The notes under the pieces: model-generated
The model's input: the letters and a program-made list of their open reading frames with translations, nothing else
Databases searched by the model: none
What the model was told of the DNA's origin: nothing
Source: Nanobdellati archaeon
Lineage (GTDB): Archaea; EX4484-52; GLR71
Reading direction: 5' to 3'
NCBI GenBank assembly: GCA_019429125.1
Contig: JAHYJO010000002.1
Coordinates: 2,695 to 66,694 of the forward strand
DNA length: 64,000 nucleotides
Shown here: positions 1 through 46,768 of the stretch, one piece after another
How the letters are laid out: each line of letters opens with the position of its first letter
How positions within the stretch are numbered: position 1 is the stretch's first letter
Translations under genes and position numbers: made by a program

Positions 1-1077
1 GAGGTTGTCAATAATGTTCCGGCTGGACTTGGTAAGAATGCAAAGCAAAAATTTTCAAGAGATGAACTTTCAGAGATTATGTCAAAGGGGGTCCGATGGA
101 CAATTGATAATGGTTTCGGGTGGAAAGGGGATGAGAAACGTCTTGAAGAGAATGGATGTATGAAAAGTGCTGATATAAATTATGTTTCTGATAATGCTTT
201 CAAGCGTGGGATGCCTCAGATTGGTAGTTTGGGTTCTGGTAATCATTTCCTTGAGGTACAGTCGGTTGATGAAATATTTGATGCTAAAACTGCAAAAGTA
301 TATGGTCTTACTGAACCTGGGCAGGTTGTCATTATGGTTCATTCTGGGTCGCGTGGTTTAGGTCATCAGGTGGCATCTGATTACTTGCGTAGTATGGAAA
401 AAAAGTATGGTATCGCTGGGCTTCCTGATAGGGAACTTATAAATGCGCCATTTTTAAGTGATTTAGGGCAGGAATATTATGGTGCTATGAGTGCGGCTGC
501 TAATTATGCATGGGTCAATAGACAGATGATGTCGCACTGGATTCGTGAAAGTTTTGCTAAAGTTTTTGAGTCTGATGCCCATGAGTTGGGTATGGATATT
601 ATTTATGATGTTGCGCATAACATTGCAAAGCGCGAGACTCATACTGTTGATGGTGAAAATATGGATGTGGTTGTGCACAGAAAAGGTGCGACACGATCAT
701 TTGCGCCGGGACGGATTGAGGTTCCTGAAATATATCGGGCTGTAGGTCAACCTGTGCTTTTGCCGGGGTCTATGGGTACATCGTCTTATATCTTGGCTGG
801 TACTGAAAAAGCTATGCAAACTACTTTCGGGTCAACTGCGCACGGTGCTGGGCGGTTGATGAGTCGGTATGCTGCAATTCAAAAATTCCGTGGTGAAACA
901 ATTAAGAAAGAACTTGAGGCAAAAGGTATAACTGTGCGTGCGGCTAGTTGGAATGGGATTTCTGAGGAAGCGCCTGGTGTTTATAAGGATGTTGATGAGG
1001 TTGTGCGTGTGAGTGATGCGGCTGGGATTGGAAAGCTTGTGGCAAAGGTTAAGCCTATGGGTGTGCTGAAAGGTTAG
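1..1077 (+). CDS. rtcB: RNA-splicing ligase RtcB, C-terminal ~360 aa; the 5' end lies outside the window
   Basis: The frame is open from nt 1. It contains the RtcB motifs GSGNHFLEVQ and HSGSRGLGHQ. Stop is a TAG at 1075-1077. Confidence 0.85.
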   Translation, partial: EVVNNVPAGLGKNAKQKFSRDELSEIMSKGVRWTIDNGFGWKGDEKRLEENGCMKSADINYVSDNAFKRGMPQIGSLGSGNHFLEVQSVDEIFDAKTAKVYGLTEPGQVVIMVHSGSRGLGHQVASDYLRSMEKKYGIAGLPDRELINAPFLSDLGQEYYGAMSAAANYAWVNRQMMSHWIRESFAKVFESDAHELGMDIIYDVAHNIAKRETHTVDGENMDVVVHRKGATRSFAPGRIEVPEIYRAVGQPVLLPGSMGTSSYILAGTEKAMQTTFGSTAHGAGRLMSRYAAIQKFRGETIKKELEAKGITVRAASWNGISEEAPGVYKDVDEVVRVSDAAGIGKLVAKVKPMGVLKG

Positions 1078-18042: not shown

Positions 18043-18327
18043 ATGATAAATCCACAGAATCTCATAAGGCATGAACTTGTTGGTCTTAATGCAACGGTTT
18101 CGGAATATGATGATACAAAATTTATCGGTATTTCGGGATGTATAATTGATGAGACTAAGGACATGATACTTATGATGTCTGGCCAAAAAAGGATTTGGCT
18201 TGTAAAAGATAAAGTGACATTGGATATAACAATTCCTTCGGGAGATGTTGTTCGAGTGTTGGGGGAACGTATTTCCGGACGACCTGAAGATCGTATCCGA
18301 AAAAAAACTCCGTCAAAATGGAAATAA
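18043..18327 (+). CDS. RNase P protein component 1 (Rpp29/Pop4-like)
   Basis: Size (94 aa) and the conserved archaeal placement between SUI1 and S17. Confidence 0.6.
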   Translation: MINPQNLIRHELVGLNATVSEYDDTKFIGISGCIIDETKDMILMMSGQKRIWLVKDKVTLDITIPSGDVVRVLGERISGRPEDRIRKKTPSKWK

Positions 18328-38886: not shown

Positions 38887-40357
<1,471 letters not shown>

Positions 40358-40456
40358 TGCCAAAAAGTTTCTGAACTTGTGATAGCTACTTCAACGTAGC
40401 ATTACGTAAACAGATTACGAAGCCGACAAAGCACCAATTTTTCAATTTGTTTAAAT

Positions 40457-40563
40457 GGGCTCTTAGTTCAGTTGGAAGAACGCTGCCTTTGCAAGGCAGA
40501 GGCCGCGCGTTCAATTTGCGTTTACCTTTAGGGTTTTAGCAAGAACATATCGCGCAGAGTCCA
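40457..40563 (+). tRNA. tRNA-Ala (anticodon TGC) in the 16S-23S spacer, with a ~34-nt T-loop intron
   Basis: Acceptor GGGCTCT with the G3:U70 pair; anticodon loop TTTGCAA; T-stem GCGCG with TTCAA at 40505-40514. The 3' T-stem CGCGC and acceptor AGAGTCC plus A follow at 40551-40563. Confidence 0.75.
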
Positions 40564-40749
40564 TTTTTATATTTACCAAAAATTACGAAGATTCACCTAA
40601 AATATCATACATCATAAAATCATATTTAAAGCATACAGCTTTATTTGTGATCGAAAGTCATTTTTCGATTGCATCTGATCAATATATTTTTCATATTGAG
40701 ATGAGGTATCATAGGTCTGTATTTGAGCATTTTGCACAAAATGTGAAAG

Positions 40750-43640
40750 CTATACAAGGGATGGCTTGGCTCAACAGCTGATGAAGGACGTGACAAGCTG
40801 CGATAAGCCCGGAGTAGGCGCATGTAGCCTTTGATTCCGGGATTTCTGAATAAGCAACTAGCTCTTCGGAGCATTCTCGCAAGAGAAAGGGAACGCGGAG
40901 AATTGAATCATCTTAGTACCCGTAGGAAAAGAAAGTAATAACGATGCCGTGAGTAAAGTCGATCGAAAGCGGTAGAGATCAAACTGAATCCTTTATAGAA
41001 ATATGATGGAAATGTGGTGTTCGTCTAAAGTATATGCTATCTTCCCGTTTTTAGCTGAAGTCTTCTGGAACGTTGCACTGTAAAGGGTGATAGTCCCGTA
41101 AGCGAAATTAACGAAAGATAGTTCTTTAGACAGAGTATCCTAGGTTGGAATTCCTGGGAGAATATGGGAGTCAATAGCTCCTAAATCTAAATACTCGTTG
41201 AGACCGATAGTGAACCAGTACTGTGAAGGAAAGGTGAAAAGTATTCCTAGCGGAAGGTTAAAAGAACCTGAAATTGTATAGCTATAGTCAGCCACGGCCC
41301 GAAAGCACCTAACGGTGCGGGGTTGTGGTGTGCGTTTCGAAAAAAGAGGCAAGGAGTGCATTTCAGTGGCGAGATTAAGGGCTTAAGGTCCGAAGTCAAA
41401 GGGAAACCAATATCTCGCAGCTTGCAAGGAGAATGGTGTTAATAGCGCCATTAGTCACTGGGATGCTACCTGAAGCCGGATGATCTTGCCCTGGGTAGGA
41501 TGAAATGTGGTGAAAACTGCATGGAGGTCCGCAACCGTTGTTATCTAGTACTCGGGTGACCTGGGGTAAGGGGTGAAAAGCCAATCGAATCCGGCGATAG
41601 CAGGTTCCTTCTGAAATAGGCAGTAGCCTAGCCTGGAACGAGGTTAATATTGGGGTAGAGATACTGATTTAGTATTTAGGCTGGGAAACCGGTCGGTACT
41701 TTGCCAAACTCCGAATCCAATATTGCTGTAGACTTCCGGAGTTAGGGCATCGGGGTAAGCTTGATGTCCTAGAGAGAAACAACTCAGGCTAGAGTTAAGG
41801 CCCCAAAGTGATTGCTAAGTGTAATAATAAGATGGTCAAAAACCACAGACAGTAGGGAGGTTAGCTTAGAAGCAGCTATCCTTTAAAGAAAGCGTAATAG
41901 CTCACCTACCAAGGTTTTTGGCGTCGTAAATGGACGGGGCTAAAGCAATCCGCCGATACTCTAGAGTGCCTATATTTTAGGTAATCTTGTATGAAGGCGT
42001 TATGCTAGGATAGAAGCAGGGTTGTAAAATCCTGTGGACCTTGCATAAACGAGAATCTTGCCGGTAGTAGCAGAAAGTCGGGTGTGAATCCCGATCGCCG
42101 TAGGGGCTAGGTTTTCCCAGCACTGTTCGTCAACTGGGAGTTAGTCGATCCTAACCGTATTCGTAATTCGAGATTCGGGAAAGGGAAATAGGTTAATATT
42201 CCTATACTGCAAAAGTACACGTGGCGACACAAGTTTATTTTCTGACATTTTGGGATAGGTTGACACGAGCTCTGCTCGTGCTAAGTGTTGAAACCTATGG
42301 AGAGTCGTAATGACGAGAAGTAGGTGAAAGCACAAATGGCTTTCCTTATGGAGAGTTCAGCTGGATCCTGGAATCCATGAAAAGGGAAATAATCGGATCT
42401 TTTGTAATCGTACCGAGAACCATTACTGGTGCCCCTGGATGAAAAGTCTAAGGCGTTTCAGGATAATCAAGTTAAAGGAATTCAGCAAATTAGCCCTGTA
42501 TCTTTGGTATAAGGGGTGTCTGTGACCATGCCCTAGGCATGACTCGCAGACTTCAATAACAAGGGGGGCTCGACTGTTTAACAAAAACGTAGCTGGCTGC
42601 TAGTCCGAAAGGATGCGTACAGCCAGTGACTCCTGCCCAGTGCGAGTAGGTGAAACTCCGGTTCAACGGATATAAGCCCTCGTAAACGGCGGTCGTAACT
42701 ATGACGATCTTAAGGTAGCGTAATCCCTTGTCGATTAATTGTCGACCTGCATCAATGGAGTAACGAAGTCCCCACTGTCTCTAACTTGACCCTGGCGAAC
42801 CCGCAATTTTGGTGCAAATGCCAAAGACTCCAAGCGGGAAGCGAAGACCCCGTGGAGCTTTACTGCAACCTGTTGTTGAGATACGGTTTAAGTTGTGAAG
42901 TGTAGGTAGTAGACATCGAAGTTATCACGCAAGTGATAATGGAGTCACCAATGGGACACTACCCTTCTTAAACTGTATTTCTAACCCTATAAGGGGACAT
43001 CTACAGGCGGGCAGTTTGACTGGGGCGGTACACTCCTAAAAAAATATCAGGAGTGCCCAATGACTTACTCAGGCCGGACAGAAATCGGCTGTAGAGCGTA
43101 AGGGTATAAGTAAGTCTGATAGGATTTCGAATAGCGAGAAATCCTGCCGTGAAAGCGTGGCCTAACGAACCCATGTAGCTTTTTATTGAGGCTCATGGAT
43201 GACAGAAAAGCTACCCCGGGGATAACTGAGTCGTCTCAAGCGAGAGCTCATATCGACCTTGAGGCTTGCTACTTCGCTGTCGGCCCTTCTCATCCTGGTT
43301 GTGCATCAGCAGCCAAGGGTGGGGGTGTTCACCCATTAAAGAGGATCGCGAGCTGGGTTCAGAACGGCGCGAGCCAGTTTGGTTGCTATCTGCTTGGAGT
43401 GTTAGTGTCTGAGAGGAAGGTTCCAACAGTACGAAAGGAACGTGGAGCCGTGGCCTCTGGTTTATCAGTTGTCCAAAAGGGCATGCTGAGTGGCTACGCC
43501 ATAGGAGATAAAAGCTGATAGCGTCTAAGCTTGAAGTTCCCCTTAAAAATAGACACTGGATCCTTATAGAAGATGAGGTTGATAGAACAGGGATGTAAGT
43601 GCGGTAACGTATTAAGTCCACTGTCACTAATAATCCAACA
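40750..43640 (+). rRNA. rrl: 23S ribosomal RNA (archaeal); ends approximate
   Basis: 5' region GGGATGGCTTGGCTCAACAGCTGATGAAGGACGTGACAAGCTGCGATAAGCC plus conserved 23S blocks throughout. No 5S follows. Confidence 0.9.
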
Positions 43641-43817
43641 AAGGCATTTTGTGCAAGCTTTGAAAATACAGACCTATGAATTTTACCTTATCCTTTTTTG
43701 GGTGAGGTTTTTTTTGGAGTGTATATAGCACTATAGTGGTATAGTTTTAGGTGTTTATAGTTTTATATAATATTGCTGTTGTTTTTTAGAAAATGATTAT
43801 ATTTTTTGTTTTTAATT

Positions 43818-44831
43818 TTACAACACTATCACGTCTTTGGCTATGTCGTAGCTCAATGAAATTACGGGTTCAAAATGACTTATTAATTTATCTATATGTG
43901 CGTGGTCTATGTCTTTATTTTCTTTATTTTGCAATTCATTTTGGACCTTAAATATTATACTCATTGTCTTTTTTGTTCTTCTATTTGTGTATATCTCTAT
44001 CGCCGTTTCTGTTTTTTTCTTGAAGAGCGCATCTCTTATGGGTTTTATGTAACTTATCCAGTCATTTAGGAATTTGATGGTGTATGTGTTAATATGATTG
44101 TCTCTTTTGAAGACGATGTAACCGTATTCTTTCATGTTTTTTGTCGGGGTAGTGTTCATGTAATAGCTTATGCCTACAAGCATGTTGCCTATTTTTTCAA
44201 GGTTTTTTATTATTCTTGACAGAATCATTAGCTCATGTGTGTCTTTTTTTGTCTTTTTCATGTACTGTGAGTCTTTGAGCGCTAGATTCAAGCATCTAAA
44301 TACTAGGTTTGTTGTCCTGTCTACTGCTGTGTCCATCTCTTTTATCTTGTCGCCTATGTCTTTGTCCTCTTTTATGTCGTCTGCTAATTCTGTTGCCATA
44401 CCTATTAAATGATTGAAGATGCTGCCTGTAAACTTATCTAAATCTATGTCTTCAATGTGTATGAAATCCTTGAAGATTATCCTTTTTTTTGACTGTTCCA
44501 TTACTTCAAAACCAATTAGCCTTTTTTGTACATGTGTTATGACTTCATACTGGTTCTTGTCAAGGTGACCTGTAAGTATTATTGTCTTGAATCCGTTTAT
44601 GTAGGATCTGTATATCTTTGCATATATGTGTTCCATGGGTTCGTTTCGGTCTATCTGTATTATTTCTGTGAGGTTTTCTGTTTCCTTTTTTAAGCAGTTG
44701 ATAGTGAGTGTGCCTGAATTGATCTCTTCAAGGTCTATTTCATCTGTTTTTTTTAGATCATAATGTTCTATCCAGCCTTTTGGTAATGATATTGCGTATG
44801 AATCGCCTAATTTGATTATTTTTCGTTTCAT
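43818..44831 (-). CDS. AbrB/SpoVT-type DNA-binding domain fused to PhoU-like helical domains (putative phosphate-uptake regulator homolog)
   Basis: N-terminal KIIKLGDSYAISLPKGW swapped-hairpin motif, followed by long helical PhoU-like repeats. Confidence 0.5.
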   Translation of the reverse strand: MKRKIIKLGDSYAISLPKGWIEHYDLKKTDEIDLEEINSGTLTINCLKKETENLTEIIQIDRNEPMEHIYAKIYRSYINGFKTIILTGHLDKNQYEVITHVQKRLIGFEVMEQSKKRIIFKDFIHIEDIDLDKFTGSIFNHLIGMATELADDIKEDKDIGDKIKEMDTAVDRTTNLVFRCLNLALKDSQYMKKTKKDTHELMILSRIIKNLEKIGNMLVGISYYMNTTPTKNMKEYGYIVFKRDNHINTYTIKFLNDWISYIKPIRDALFKKKTETAIEIYTNRRTKKTMSIIFKVQNELQNKENKDIDHAHIDKLISHFEPVISLSYDIAKDVIVL

Positions 44832-44975
44832 ATTGATTACCTTTGTTTGGTGTAATATATATTTTGTCTTTGTATATATATTATATATAATATATATATA
44901 TTCTTTGGGTTTCTCTCATTAAAATTATGTCTGAAAAAGTTTTCAGACGTTGTGTATTTGAAATGTTGTGATACT

Positions 44976-45536
44976 ATGGGAAAATATGTGATAACTGGTG
45001 GGCCATGTTCGGGGAAGACAAGTCTTGTGAATTATTTGGCTTCTAAAGGGTATGGGATAGTTCCTGAGACTGCGGAATTGATAATAAAAGAGCAATTGGA
45101 GTCTGGCGGAGATATAGTGCCATGGAATTTGTTGCGACGGTTGGAGTTTCAGGAAGAACTTATAAGTCGGCAGATATATGCTGAGAATTCTATTTCATCT
45201 ATGTTAGGTGATAAGACTTATTTTTTTGATCGTGCAATTCCTGATAATATTGCATATAATATTTTTGATGGGCAGAAACCTTCAGATTATCTTGTTGATA
45301 CAAGTAAAAATCAAAATTATGATTGTGTCTTTCTTTTGGGACAGGTATCAGTCTATGAGAATTCATCAATCCGTAAAGAGGATTCATTTGAGGCTAAAAG
45401 ACTTTCATCAATATTGGGTGAGGTTTACTGTGATCTTGGATTTGAGGTTCTTGATGTTGAGCCTATGGGTTCTGCTTGTGAGAGAGCTGAGTTTATAATG
45501 GATATTATAAATGATAAAAATGAGTTTTTGAGGTGA
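44976..45536 (+). CDS. P-loop NTPase (AAA_28 / NadR-like ATPase domain)
   Basis: Walker A ITGGPCSGKTS right at the N-terminus. ATG follows GTGATA. Confidence 0.55.
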   Translation: MGKYVITGGPCSGKTSLVNYLASKGYGIVPETAELIIKEQLESGGDIVPWNLLRRLEFQEELISRQIYAENSISSMLGDKTYFFDRAIPDNIAYNIFDGQKPSDYLVDTSKNQNYDCVFLLGQVSVYENSSIRKEDSFEAKRLSSILGEVYCDLGFEVLDVEPMGSACERAEFIMDIINDKNEFLR

Positions 45537-45542
45537 TTGTAT

Positions 45543-46046
45543 ATGGTTGTTGAAAAAGAAATCAAATTGGTCAATCCTAAATTTACTGTGGCTGATGTTT
45601 ATTATTGGTGTGAGTGTAAAGATATCAGTGTGTTGAAGATTGTGGATACTTATATGGTGTCTAAACGTTTAGAGGGTGTAATTTCAGATGGTAATCTCAC
45701 AGATGATAATTTAGTGCGCATACGAGAGATTGACGGAGCTCCATACTTTACAGTCAAGGGACCTGATATGTCTTGGTCTGTGTATAAAAAACGTGAAGAA
45801 TTTGAAGTTCTTATCACTCCTCTTGTCAAAGATGTAATATGTGGTTTAGGGCAACCTGCGCTTGTAATTGTGAAAGATAGATATGTTCTTGAGGGTGGTA
45901 TGTTTGAAATGATATATGATACTGTGTATGGTGTGTCTGTTATAGGTAAGGATATTGCGCTATCTCATGACTTAAATGGGTGGTATAATATGATTCAGAC
46001 TAATATATTTGAGGTAGAGGATATAACTGATAAAGGTCTGGATTGA
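45543..46046 (+). CDS. CYTH-domain protein (triphosphate tunnel metalloenzyme family)
   Basis: N-terminal EKEIKL (ExExK) motif and a downstream RIRE...YFTVKG pattern typical of CYTH. Confidence 0.55.
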   Translation: MVVEKEIKLVNPKFTVADVYYWCECKDISVLKIVDTYMVSKRLEGVISDGNLTDDNLVRIREIDGAPYFTVKGPDMSWSVYKKREEFEVLITPLVKDVICGLGQPALVIVKDRYVLEGGMFEMIYDTVYGVSVIGKDIALSHDLNGWYNMIQTNIFEVEDITDKGLD

Positions 46047-46274
46047 TTGTCTATATGTCTTCGTTTTTCAAAAGATGATTTGACTACTGTCTCAAATTAT
46101 GACTATTTTATAGAACTCATCTCAAAATTGTCATGAATCGTGTTTTTTTGTTATATCGTCAAAATCTTTATAAAATTTATAAGTTAACATACATTTACTT
46201 ACTTTAGTAAGTCAATCCCTTTAGGTGGCTTCAATGTCACAGATTTGTGCGCTTTTGTATCAAGTCTTGGATTG

Positions 46275-46542
46275 GAAGAGGCAGAATGGCTTACTGTGGT
46301 ATAATCTTTGATTTATCATTGATTGTATCGTGGAGGAAAGTCCGCCCTCCGTTAAATGAAACCGGTGTGAGTCGGTGCGTGAAAGCGTAGGCAATGCAGC
46401 AGAAACGAATGTTTTTCCGTAAATATTATGATACGTTAGTTGAAGTTCCGGAAAAGACAGTGAAACGGGCATCCTTTCAGGAGCAAGGTATAACCGCTTA
46501 GTCTGATGCCATTAAAACATAAGGCGGCTTACTCGCCTCTTC
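46275..46542 (+). ncRNA. rnpB: RNase P RNA (rnpB), compact form
   Basis: CR-I-like GGAGGAAAGTCCGCCCTCC and CR-V-like ACATAAGGCGGCTTACTCGCC; the P4 strands AAG(U)CCGC and GCGGCUU pair with a compensatory change; terminal helix GAAGAGGC/GCCTCTTC; internal GTGAAACGG-type blocks. Confidence 0.7.
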
Positions 46543-46768
46543 ATAATTTTTATAATATTGGGTGATGTATATTTCAAAAAAAGAAAAAGCAGGAATGCCG
46601 TCGGGAAATGCAGGACTTGTAAGATATTTTGATGATTATAAGGAAGCTGTACAGATTAAACCAGAGCATATTTTAGGGTTTATATCTTTTATCATTGTTC
46701 TTGAGCTTGTGCTTAAGTATATGGCTGTATAGGTTAGTTATTTATTTCTTTTTTCCTATAGTTTTCTT

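Follow-up and report, generated by a model that had tools for sequence, protein, structure and literature searches.

A nanohaloarchaeal RNase P RNA with a type A-like specificity domain, a reduced catalytic domain and an apparent folded 5' leader

Introduction

RNase P is the enzyme that trims tRNA precursors. An intergenic region within the 64-kb stretch of DNA analysed here (the window) had been predicted to encode its catalytic RNA, and the locus raises two questions, namely to which class of archaeal RNase P RNA this molecule belongs, and how its 5' end arises. Two main classes have been described. Type M is marked above all by the loss of P8; it also lacks L15, P16, P17 and P6, and its P10/11 is elongated and uninterrupted (PMC1874661; PMC4919922); type M occurs in the Methanococcales and Archaeoglobus, and type A in, for example, Methanothermobacter thermautotrophicus and Pyrococcus furiosus. 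In this study, we characterized the RNA, its orthologues, its promoter and its surroundings by comparative sequence analysis.

Results

Identity and extent of the RNA

An Rfam scan of the whole window matched RF00373 (RNaseP_arch) to 46274-46543 on the plus strand at 159 bits (E 3e-45), the gathering score being 84. The match aligns end to end with model positions 1-288, and no second RNase P RNA was found in the 64-kb window. The covariance model thus bears out, at full length, the original prediction of an RNase P RNA at 46275-46542, and the CR-I-like block, the CR-V-like block and the closing helix that it described were all found where it had placed them (Table 1). Its view that the molecule is shorter than typical type A RNAs holds only by a small amount (270 nt against the 288-position model), and the length is hardly remarkable because a 29-nt expansion of P3 offsets the 36-nt loss in P15-17. 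The RNA itself is a routine annotation, within reach of any Rfam-based pipeline. It is followed by an oligo-T run, and the region 3' of the RNA is T-rich in all relatives (alignment A5). The transcription start and both mature ends of the RNA used throughout are predicted positions.

Table 1. Coordinates of the RNase P RNA, its 5' leader and neighbouring features (RNA numbering from 46274 = 1)
Feature	Position in window	RNA nt	Strand	Basis or remark
Rpp29, RNase P protein subunit	18043..18327		+	PF01868, E 4.9e-18, full domain
rRNA operon, 16S - tRNA-like - 23S	38887-43650			Rfam scan
tRNA-Ala(UGC)-like element	40457-40529			between 16S and 23S; Rfam 39 bits
MazE/AbrB-PhoU fusion gene	43818-44831		-	first in conserved gene order
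AAA_28 ATPase gene	44952-45536		+	second in conserved gene order
CYTH-like ORF	45537-46046			upstream of the RNA
Archaeal promoter: BRE-like CAAAATC, then TATA box TTTATAAAA	46160..46175		+	conserved in 8 loci
Structured 5' leader, 77 nt	46197..46273		+	RNAalifold and covariation
Leader hairpin 1	46197-46212		+	RNAalifold
Leader helix A	46213-46218 with 46269-46274		+	RNAalifold; 3' strand runs straight into P1
Leader hairpin 2	46225-46240		+	RNAalifold
Leader hairpin 3	46241-46247 with 46261-46267		+	RNAalifold
Reverse ORF, 70 aa	46260-46472		-	ORF list; no Pfam match
RNase P RNA (RPR), 270 nt	46274..46543	1-270	+	RF00373, full model
Closing helix, GAAGAGGC with GCCTCTTC	46275-46282 with 46535-46542			paired strands
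P1		2-11 with 259-269	+	RF00373 alignment
P2		12-17 with 235-240	+	RF00373 alignment
J2/3, 3 nt			+	RF00373 alignment
P3, expanded to about 40 nt	46294..46333	21-60	+	RF00373 alignment
CR-I block, AGGAAAGTCCGCCCTCC	46334-46350			
P4 5' strand in CR-I, AAG-U-CCGCC, bulged U at 46341 (U68)	46338..46346	65-73	+	
P8, CCGGU-GUGA-GUCGG, GUGA loop	46362-46375	89-102	+	aligned to model P8
P9, GAAA loop	46376-46389	103-116	+	aligned to model P9
P12 with K-turn-like UGAU/UGA internal loop	46410..46459	137-186	+	matches model AuGAuGAU...cuGA
P15 stub GGU-AUA-ACC, 3 bp	46487..46495	214-222	+	3 nt vs 39 nt in model
CR-V block, ACATAAGGCGGCTTA	46517-46531			
P4 3' strand in CR-V, GGCGGCUU	46523..46530	250-257	+	pairs with P4 5' strand
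Oligo-T run, 4 nt past the RNA	46547..46551		+	seen in sequence; likely archaeal termination signal
Sec61beta gene, 56 aa	46562-46732			PF03911; immediate 3' neighbour
Endo IV-like TIM-barrel gene	starts 46769			after Sec61beta

Host clade and orthologues

Judged by its sequences, the host is a nanohaloarchaeon, one of the tiny, salt-loving archaea within DPANN. The 19-mer GGAGGAAAGTCCGCCCTCC from CR-I was scanned against one genome per GTDB species and gave 24 loci. Three of these lie in Candidatus Nanohaloarchaea MAGs, the only archaeal genomes, and 21 are bacterial, mostly from Anaerolineae; among the bacterial loci checked, two had an RNase P match, both being class A RNase P RNAs. The RNAs of the three MAGs share 96% mean column identity with that of the window, and in all four genomes a distance of 2.6-3.3 kb separates the 3' end of the 23S rRNA from the RNase P RNA downstream of it. 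Moreover, the Endo IV-like protein encoded close to the RNA is 100% identical to an NCBI protein of a 'DPANN group archaeon' MAG.

Further syntenic orthologues were found in L026, L025, L027 and L155, whose Endo IV-like homologues are 64, 63, 54 and 50% identical, respectively, and whose RNase P RNAs score 158-177 bits. Eight syntenic orthologues were collected altogether, with RF00373 scores of 156-177 bits. As DPANN homologues of the Endo IV-like protein with 45-49% identity (L028-L034) have no adjoining RNase P RNA, the synteny is confined to the clade.

Anatomy of the RNA

The structure was read from the RF00373 alignment (Table 1), in which P5 and P7 are also present. The P3 loop has 29 nt, compared with 4 nt in the model, and relatives differ in the length of P3, with 11 nt deleted in L006 and a short P3 in L025; its basal pairs covary. 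P8 and P9 both end in GNRA loops and are 100% paired in seven orthologues, in which only one-sided changes (G.U to G-C or U-A) occur. P10/11 is interrupted by a CAA bulge and a U bulge (GG-CAA-UGCA with GGCA-U-CC), as in the type A consensus, and the CR-II/CR-III motifs AGAAACGA and GUGAAACG are present. P12 shows compensatory changes at pairs 142-180, 143-179, 146-176 and 160-167, and its K-turn-like loop is the presumed L7Ae site; the K-turn role of such a motif has been described (PMC5499556). In one clade member, L155, the J5/7 that connects P5 with P7 contains an inserted small hairpin, CCUG-UUAAGU-CAGG (L155 197-216), which no other member has.

As to which P-helices are missing, a point raised by the original prediction, the alignment shows that L15, P16 and P17 are absent and that P15 has shrunk to a 3-bp stub; since this reduction leaves P6 without a partner, the P6 pseudoknot is absent as well. 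The same reduction of P15 is found in all eight clade members. Because the stub is invariant within the clade it carries no covariation support, and a single U-U mismatch occurs in it, in L026. P13, P14 and P18 are also absent, as they are from all archaeal RNase P RNAs (PMC1874661).

The remaining structure is well supported by comparison. In seven orthologues, 95.7% of the cells are paired in the model structure, compared with 40-50% in slid controls, and both-sided changes are found at nine pairs, in P1, P2, P3 and P12; pair 9-262 in P1, for example, is C-G, G-C or U-A among the orthologues. The covariation score of 0.149 was reached by none of 500 shuffles. The P4 helix with its universal bulged U would form the catalytic core, and the complete type A-like specificity domain, consisting of P7-P12 with the GNRA loops and the CR-II/CR-III motifs, would read the tRNA elbow.

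Pairing in P4

All eight pairs of P4 are Watson-Crick, with U46341 bulged. The helix is invariant within the clade; across 11 archaeal RNAs it is 100% paired, compared with 28-52% in slid controls, with compensatory changes at five of the eight pairs. Pair G71-C252 is reversed relative to the archaeal consensus c-g, and among the 11 RNAs this position is G-C in six, C-G in four and A-U in one, to which L155 adds U-A. The same pair agrees with the bacterial class A consensus, CCGGG/CCCGG. The original prediction held that P4 keeps its pairing through a compensatory swap relative to both the archaeal and the bacterial consensus. The pairing and the swap against the archaeal consensus are upheld, but there is no swap against the bacterial consensus, which is already G-C at this position. 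The swap is genuine, yet this pair is known to vary and the change is nothing out of the ordinary.

The 21 bacterial genomes that share the CR-I 19-mer (mostly Anaerolineae/Aggregatilineales, including L001 and L017) carry CCGCC in P4, and the partner strand in CR-V of L017 is GGCGG. As these differ from the usual bacterial CCGGG/CCCGG, the P4 variant arose in parallel in a bacterial lineage.

Promoter and 5' leader

All eight clade loci, including the divergent L155, have an invariant or almost invariant BRE/TATA block about 100 nt upstream of the RNase P RNA (alignment A6). The usual archaeal spacing between TATA box and start is about -26/-27, and the TATA centre at about 46171 thus puts the expected start close to 46197, or 77 nt ahead of the RNA, whereas other archaeal RNase P RNA loci have a TATA-like box only about 28-36 nt before the RNA 5' end. 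A T-rich stretch, TTTTGTAT at 46253-46260, was considered as a proximal TATA box and rejected, as it sits in the loop of leader hairpin 3 and is absent from L155. The conserved promoter would therefore give rise to a precursor, and a conserved leader of 77 nt with a fold of its own apparently precedes the RNase P RNA in the transcript; the original prediction appears to have missed this start of the transcription unit, about 77 nt upstream.

The leader folds into a hairpin followed by a three-way junction that abuts P1. It is 95.8% paired among the orthologues, compared with 22-44% in slid controls, with compensatory changes at eight of 24 pairs and a covariation score of 0.425 against 0.04-0.14 in slid controls. 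Single-sequence energy minimization of the leader alone gives the same fold (-21.8 kcal/mol, z = -3.7), and the many G.U pairs indicate that the structure belongs to the plus-strand RNA. Conservation is confined to the helices, and the loops and joining strands vary. A covariance model built from seven clade leaders (R1) finds the L155 leader independently (35.6 bits, E 2e-5) and detects none elsewhere in the window or in the loci of other lineages. An Rfam search at E <= 10 over 46040-46290 returned nothing believable, so that the leader has no Rfam family. We also considered a miniature 5S rRNA, a C/D or H/ACA sRNA and half of a BHB stem, and set them aside for want of supporting motifs or an Rfam match.

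Neighbouring genes

The original prediction named an Rpp29 gene at 18043-18327 as encoding the cognate protein, and the PF01868 match lies exactly there, between SUI1 and an S17-sized ORF in a ribosomal-protein gene cluster. Rpp29 is the only one of five subunits found in the window; Rpp21, Rpp30, Pop5 and L7Ae were not found in the 64 kb by Pfam searches, which included 20 further ORFs. Together with Rpp29 and, presumably, the other four proteins, the RNA would remove the 5' leaders of tRNA precursors.

The genes on either side required some revision. The Endo IV-like gene, which had been placed next to the RNA on its 3' side, does not adjoin it directly, since a Sec61beta gene (PF03911) stands between the two, with a Shine-Dalgarno-like GGTGAT motif after the oligo-T run. 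The upstream ORF had been called a CYTH gene. It has no Pfam CYTH match here even at E <= 10, yet the assignment is plausible: the ORF is 37% identical to an ORF in L025 that has a weak precomputed CYTH match, and both begin with an ExExK-like motif. The 70-aa reverse ORF that overlaps the RNA is present, and it was rightly dismissed as spurious because it is broken in relatives, by stops after 17-56 codons or by frameshifts from P3 indels.

The gene order in this region, MazE/AbrB-PhoU fusion, AAA_28 ATPase, CYTH-like ORF, RNase P RNA, Sec61beta and Endo IV-like, is complete in L025 and partial in L026 and L027.

rRNA operon, tRNA genes and strand composition

Besides the tRNA-like element within the rRNA operon, the Rfam scan found four ordinary tRNAs in the window. 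No 5S rRNA was found by Rfam after the 23S rRNA (43650-44000) or anywhere else in the window. The tRNA-Ala(UGC)-like element has no ARAGORN call; its D, anticodon and T arms are intact, and the segment that follows the T arm, UUACCUUU, is unable to form pairs with GGGCUCU, the 5' strand of the acceptor stem. The element could be a degenerate tRNA that survives only as a signal for rRNA processing, or else reflect an assembly problem. The tRNA-Arg(UCU) gene downstream of the Endo IV-like gene is a normal 75 nt in the window (69 bits), and the corresponding Rfam matches in L004 (4344-4402), L006 (3198-3256) and L025 (3842-3900) are 59 nt long and score 29-32 bits. In one alignment of these relatives, a stretch of 18 positions around the T arm is reduced to 3 nt, which could be a local-alignment artefact or reflect an unusual tRNA.

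In two of the other archaeal loci, L038 (1279-1632, minus strand) and L088 (7-281, minus strand), 32 and 86 nt, respectively, separate the RNase P RNA from the 23S rRNA that precedes it on the same strand, which suggests co-transcription with the rRNA operon. This slot is the usual place of the 5S rRNA. The window itself has a GC skew of +0.14 to +0.31 in every 4-kb bin of 1-64000, including the part at 44-56 kb that is rich in minus-strand genes, and so marked a strand asymmetry is unusual for an archaeon.

Discussion

We consider it highly probable that 46274-46543 on the plus strand encodes the catalytic RNA of a nanohaloarchaeal RNase P, with a reduced catalytic domain, and that this RNA is made as a precursor with a 77-nt leader. 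In a limited literature search, we found no description of a hybrid A/M architecture or of an RNA leader in Nanohaloarchaea, and work on RNase P in this group was represented by a survey of protein subunits only. A covariation-supported leader fused to P1 is, as far as we could find in that search, undescribed for any archaeal RNase P RNA. It poses a concrete and easily tested question, namely how the 5' end of the RNase P RNA arises.

Most likely, the leader is a maturation or stability element that is recognized by its shape and would be cut off at the junction of helix A and P1. We lean towards removal because all mature RNase P RNAs known so far have their ends in P1, and the process would then resemble that of t-elements and of the yeast RPR1 leader. 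Removal is not without difficulties, since a leader made only to be discarded seems superfluous if the promoter could be placed at +1, and the leader has neither conserved loop sequences nor a T-loop motif, nor a tRNA call by ARAGORN at default settings.

A possible but less probable alternative is that the leader stays on the RNA as a peripheral domain peculiar to the lineage, so that the mature RNA would have about 347 nt and helix A would stack coaxially on P1; such stacking would make the catalytic domain, now lacking P15-17 and P6, more rigid. In seven of the eight loci no linker separates P1 from the 3' strand of helix A, the helices are conserved and the loops variable, as in expansion segments of the rRNA type, and the clade has indeed lost the P15-17/P6 scaffold. 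The gene also has its own promoter, so a leader is not required just for excision from an operon. However, one or two unpaired nucleotides interrupt the junction in L155, and we saw in the leader no motif for tertiary contacts, tetraloop-receptor or otherwise. Long 5' extensions that are kept in the mature molecule are, moreover, not known to us from any RNase P RNA, and the ends normally pair in P1.

That the leader is a tRNA-like t-element, with a tRNase Z cut at its 3' side creating the 5' end of the RNase P RNA, is in our view rather unlikely. Helix A (6 bp) and hairpin 3 (7 bp) would mimic the stack of acceptor and T arm, hairpin 2 would stand for the anticodon arm, and the boundary between hairpin 1 and helix A would be the RNase P cleavage site, so that maturation of the RNase P RNA would be coupled to the tRNA-processing enzymes. 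The topology is in fact that of a tRNA without a D arm, the 3' strands of hairpin 3 and helix A are contiguous, and their stack of 13 bp is close to the 12 bp of a tRNA. There is also a precedent in Haloferax volcanii, in which a t-element lies directly upstream of the 5S rRNA and cleavage by tRNase Z makes the 5S 5' end, t-elements being substrates of both tRNase Z and RNase P (PMC3296008; PMC4326828). Nevertheless, the leader has no T-loop consensus, hairpin 3 has a loop of anything between 5 and 13 nt, that of hairpin 2 has 6 nt and is variable, and the predicted cut site shifts by 1-2 nt between the window and L155. ARAGORN at default settings, including its mitochondrial model, calls no tRNA in the leader, and the Rfam tRNA model gives no match there at E <= 10. 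Relaxed ARAGORN runs repeatedly propose a tRNA-like fold that ends at nucleotide 1 of the RNA, but these cloverleaves clash with the covariation-supported hairpin 1 and helix A. We rejected such calls (80% thresholds) as evidence, as they come as 3-4 overlapping and inconsistent calls per 150 nt. The stronger proposition, that the leader is a degenerate tRNA-like element and that maturation of the RNase P RNA depends on tRNase Z and on RNase P itself, is quite unlikely in our estimation. If true, it would link tRNA-processing capacity and RNase P biogenesis in a feedback loop, in an organism whose genome is minimal.

It is very unlikely that the leader is a separate small RNA gene that is co-transcribed with the RNase P RNA and then released. 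Its fold is self-contained, with the last pair exactly at the boundary of the RNase P RNA, and its sequence evolves faster than that of the RNase P RNA while its structure is kept, as the covariation scores of the two indicate (0.425 and 0.149). Yet it was never found apart from the RNase P RNA, neither the window nor the other loci hold a further copy, and it offers neither a conserved single-stranded sequence that could act as a guide or binding site nor a match to an Rfam family.

Finally, the idea that the locus is a decayed, non-functional copy whose loss of P15-17 is mere degeneration takes up the loss of elements that are important in type A RNAs, but it is almost certainly wrong given that the architecture is kept in eight genomes with a neighbouring protein as low as 50% identical, that P1, P2, P3 and P12 show compensatory changes, that the blocks from CR-I to CR-V aligned by the Rfam model are all intact, that the promoter is invariant and that the window holds no other RNase P RNA.

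Comparison with known systems

For the favoured reading, in which the leader is removed, there are two points of comparison. In Saccharomyces cerevisiae, the RPR1 precursor has an 84-nt 5' leader that is removed in maturation, and the archaeal RNA described here would likewise start out with some 80 nt of 5' leader. In yeast this leader contains Pol III promoter elements, a rationale that is not applicable here because archaeal promoters lie upstream of the transcript. The Haloferax t-element resembles the leader in being a folded element directly 5' of a stable RNA, with the 3' end of its closing helix at the mature 5' end of that RNA. It lies inside the rRNA operon, where excision is needed, whereas the transcription unit described here has its own promoter; in addition, no T-loop or cloverleaf is detectable in the leader.

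As for the RNA proper, it is neither a canonical type A nor a canonical type M RNA but a hybrid, with a specificity domain of the A type and a reduced, M-like catalytic domain. It shares with type A the helices P1-P5 and P7-P12, including P8 and P9, the 3-nt J2/3, the sequences of CR-I, CR-II/III and CR-V, the bulged U in P4 and the K-turn-like motif in P12. Of the features that define type A (PMC1874661), P8 and the interrupted P10/11 are thus present, and L15, P16, P17 and P6 are not. The missing L15 internal loop would have held the GGU that binds CCA, and what is left of P15 is a 3-bp hairpin; the P3 of about 40 nt and the structured 77-nt leader, apparently co-transcribed, likewise depart from type A.

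The loss of L15, P16, P17 and P6 is the feature shared with type M, from which the RNA differs by its P8 and its interrupted P10/11. L15 is the loop that pairs with CCA, and its loss has been described (PMC4919922). With these elements gone, pairing with the 3'-CCA of the tRNA would not take place and dependence on protein would be expected, as in type M (PMC4919922; PMC1874661). It fits with this loss that a 3'-CCA is not encoded by any of the window's five tRNA genes. As the DPANN host lineage is unrelated, the loss of P15-17 was probably independent of that in type M. The traits that are joined in the definition of type M therefore come apart here, in a DPANN lineage.

Short P15 hairpins are not confined to this clade. 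A pattern scan of metagenomes for a short P15 found, in other archaea, at least eight RNAs with P15 hairpins of 10-13 nt, scoring 94-153 bits; the matches listed were mostly type A RNAs from soil with a P15/16 of 29-30 nt, and none of those listed came from the clade of the window. The short-P15 RNAs among the matches listed, all from other uncultured archaea, are L086, L040, L087, L037, L038, L088, L089 and L054. Two of them, L089 (239-463, minus strand, 225 nt) and L054 (1678-1896, plus strand, 219 nt), pass the Rfam gathering score with 101 and 94 bits, lack P8, most of P12 and P15-17, and are perhaps smaller than type M. The short-P15 RNAs of these other lineages are 219-451 nt long, have TATA-like boxes about 30 nt from the RNA and carry no leader detectable by model R1, in contrast to the RNA of the window; they resemble it in the P15 hairpin, and several also have G-C at the position of G71-C252. 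The occurrence of such RNAs in other uncultured archaea suggests that the division into types A and M is too coarse.
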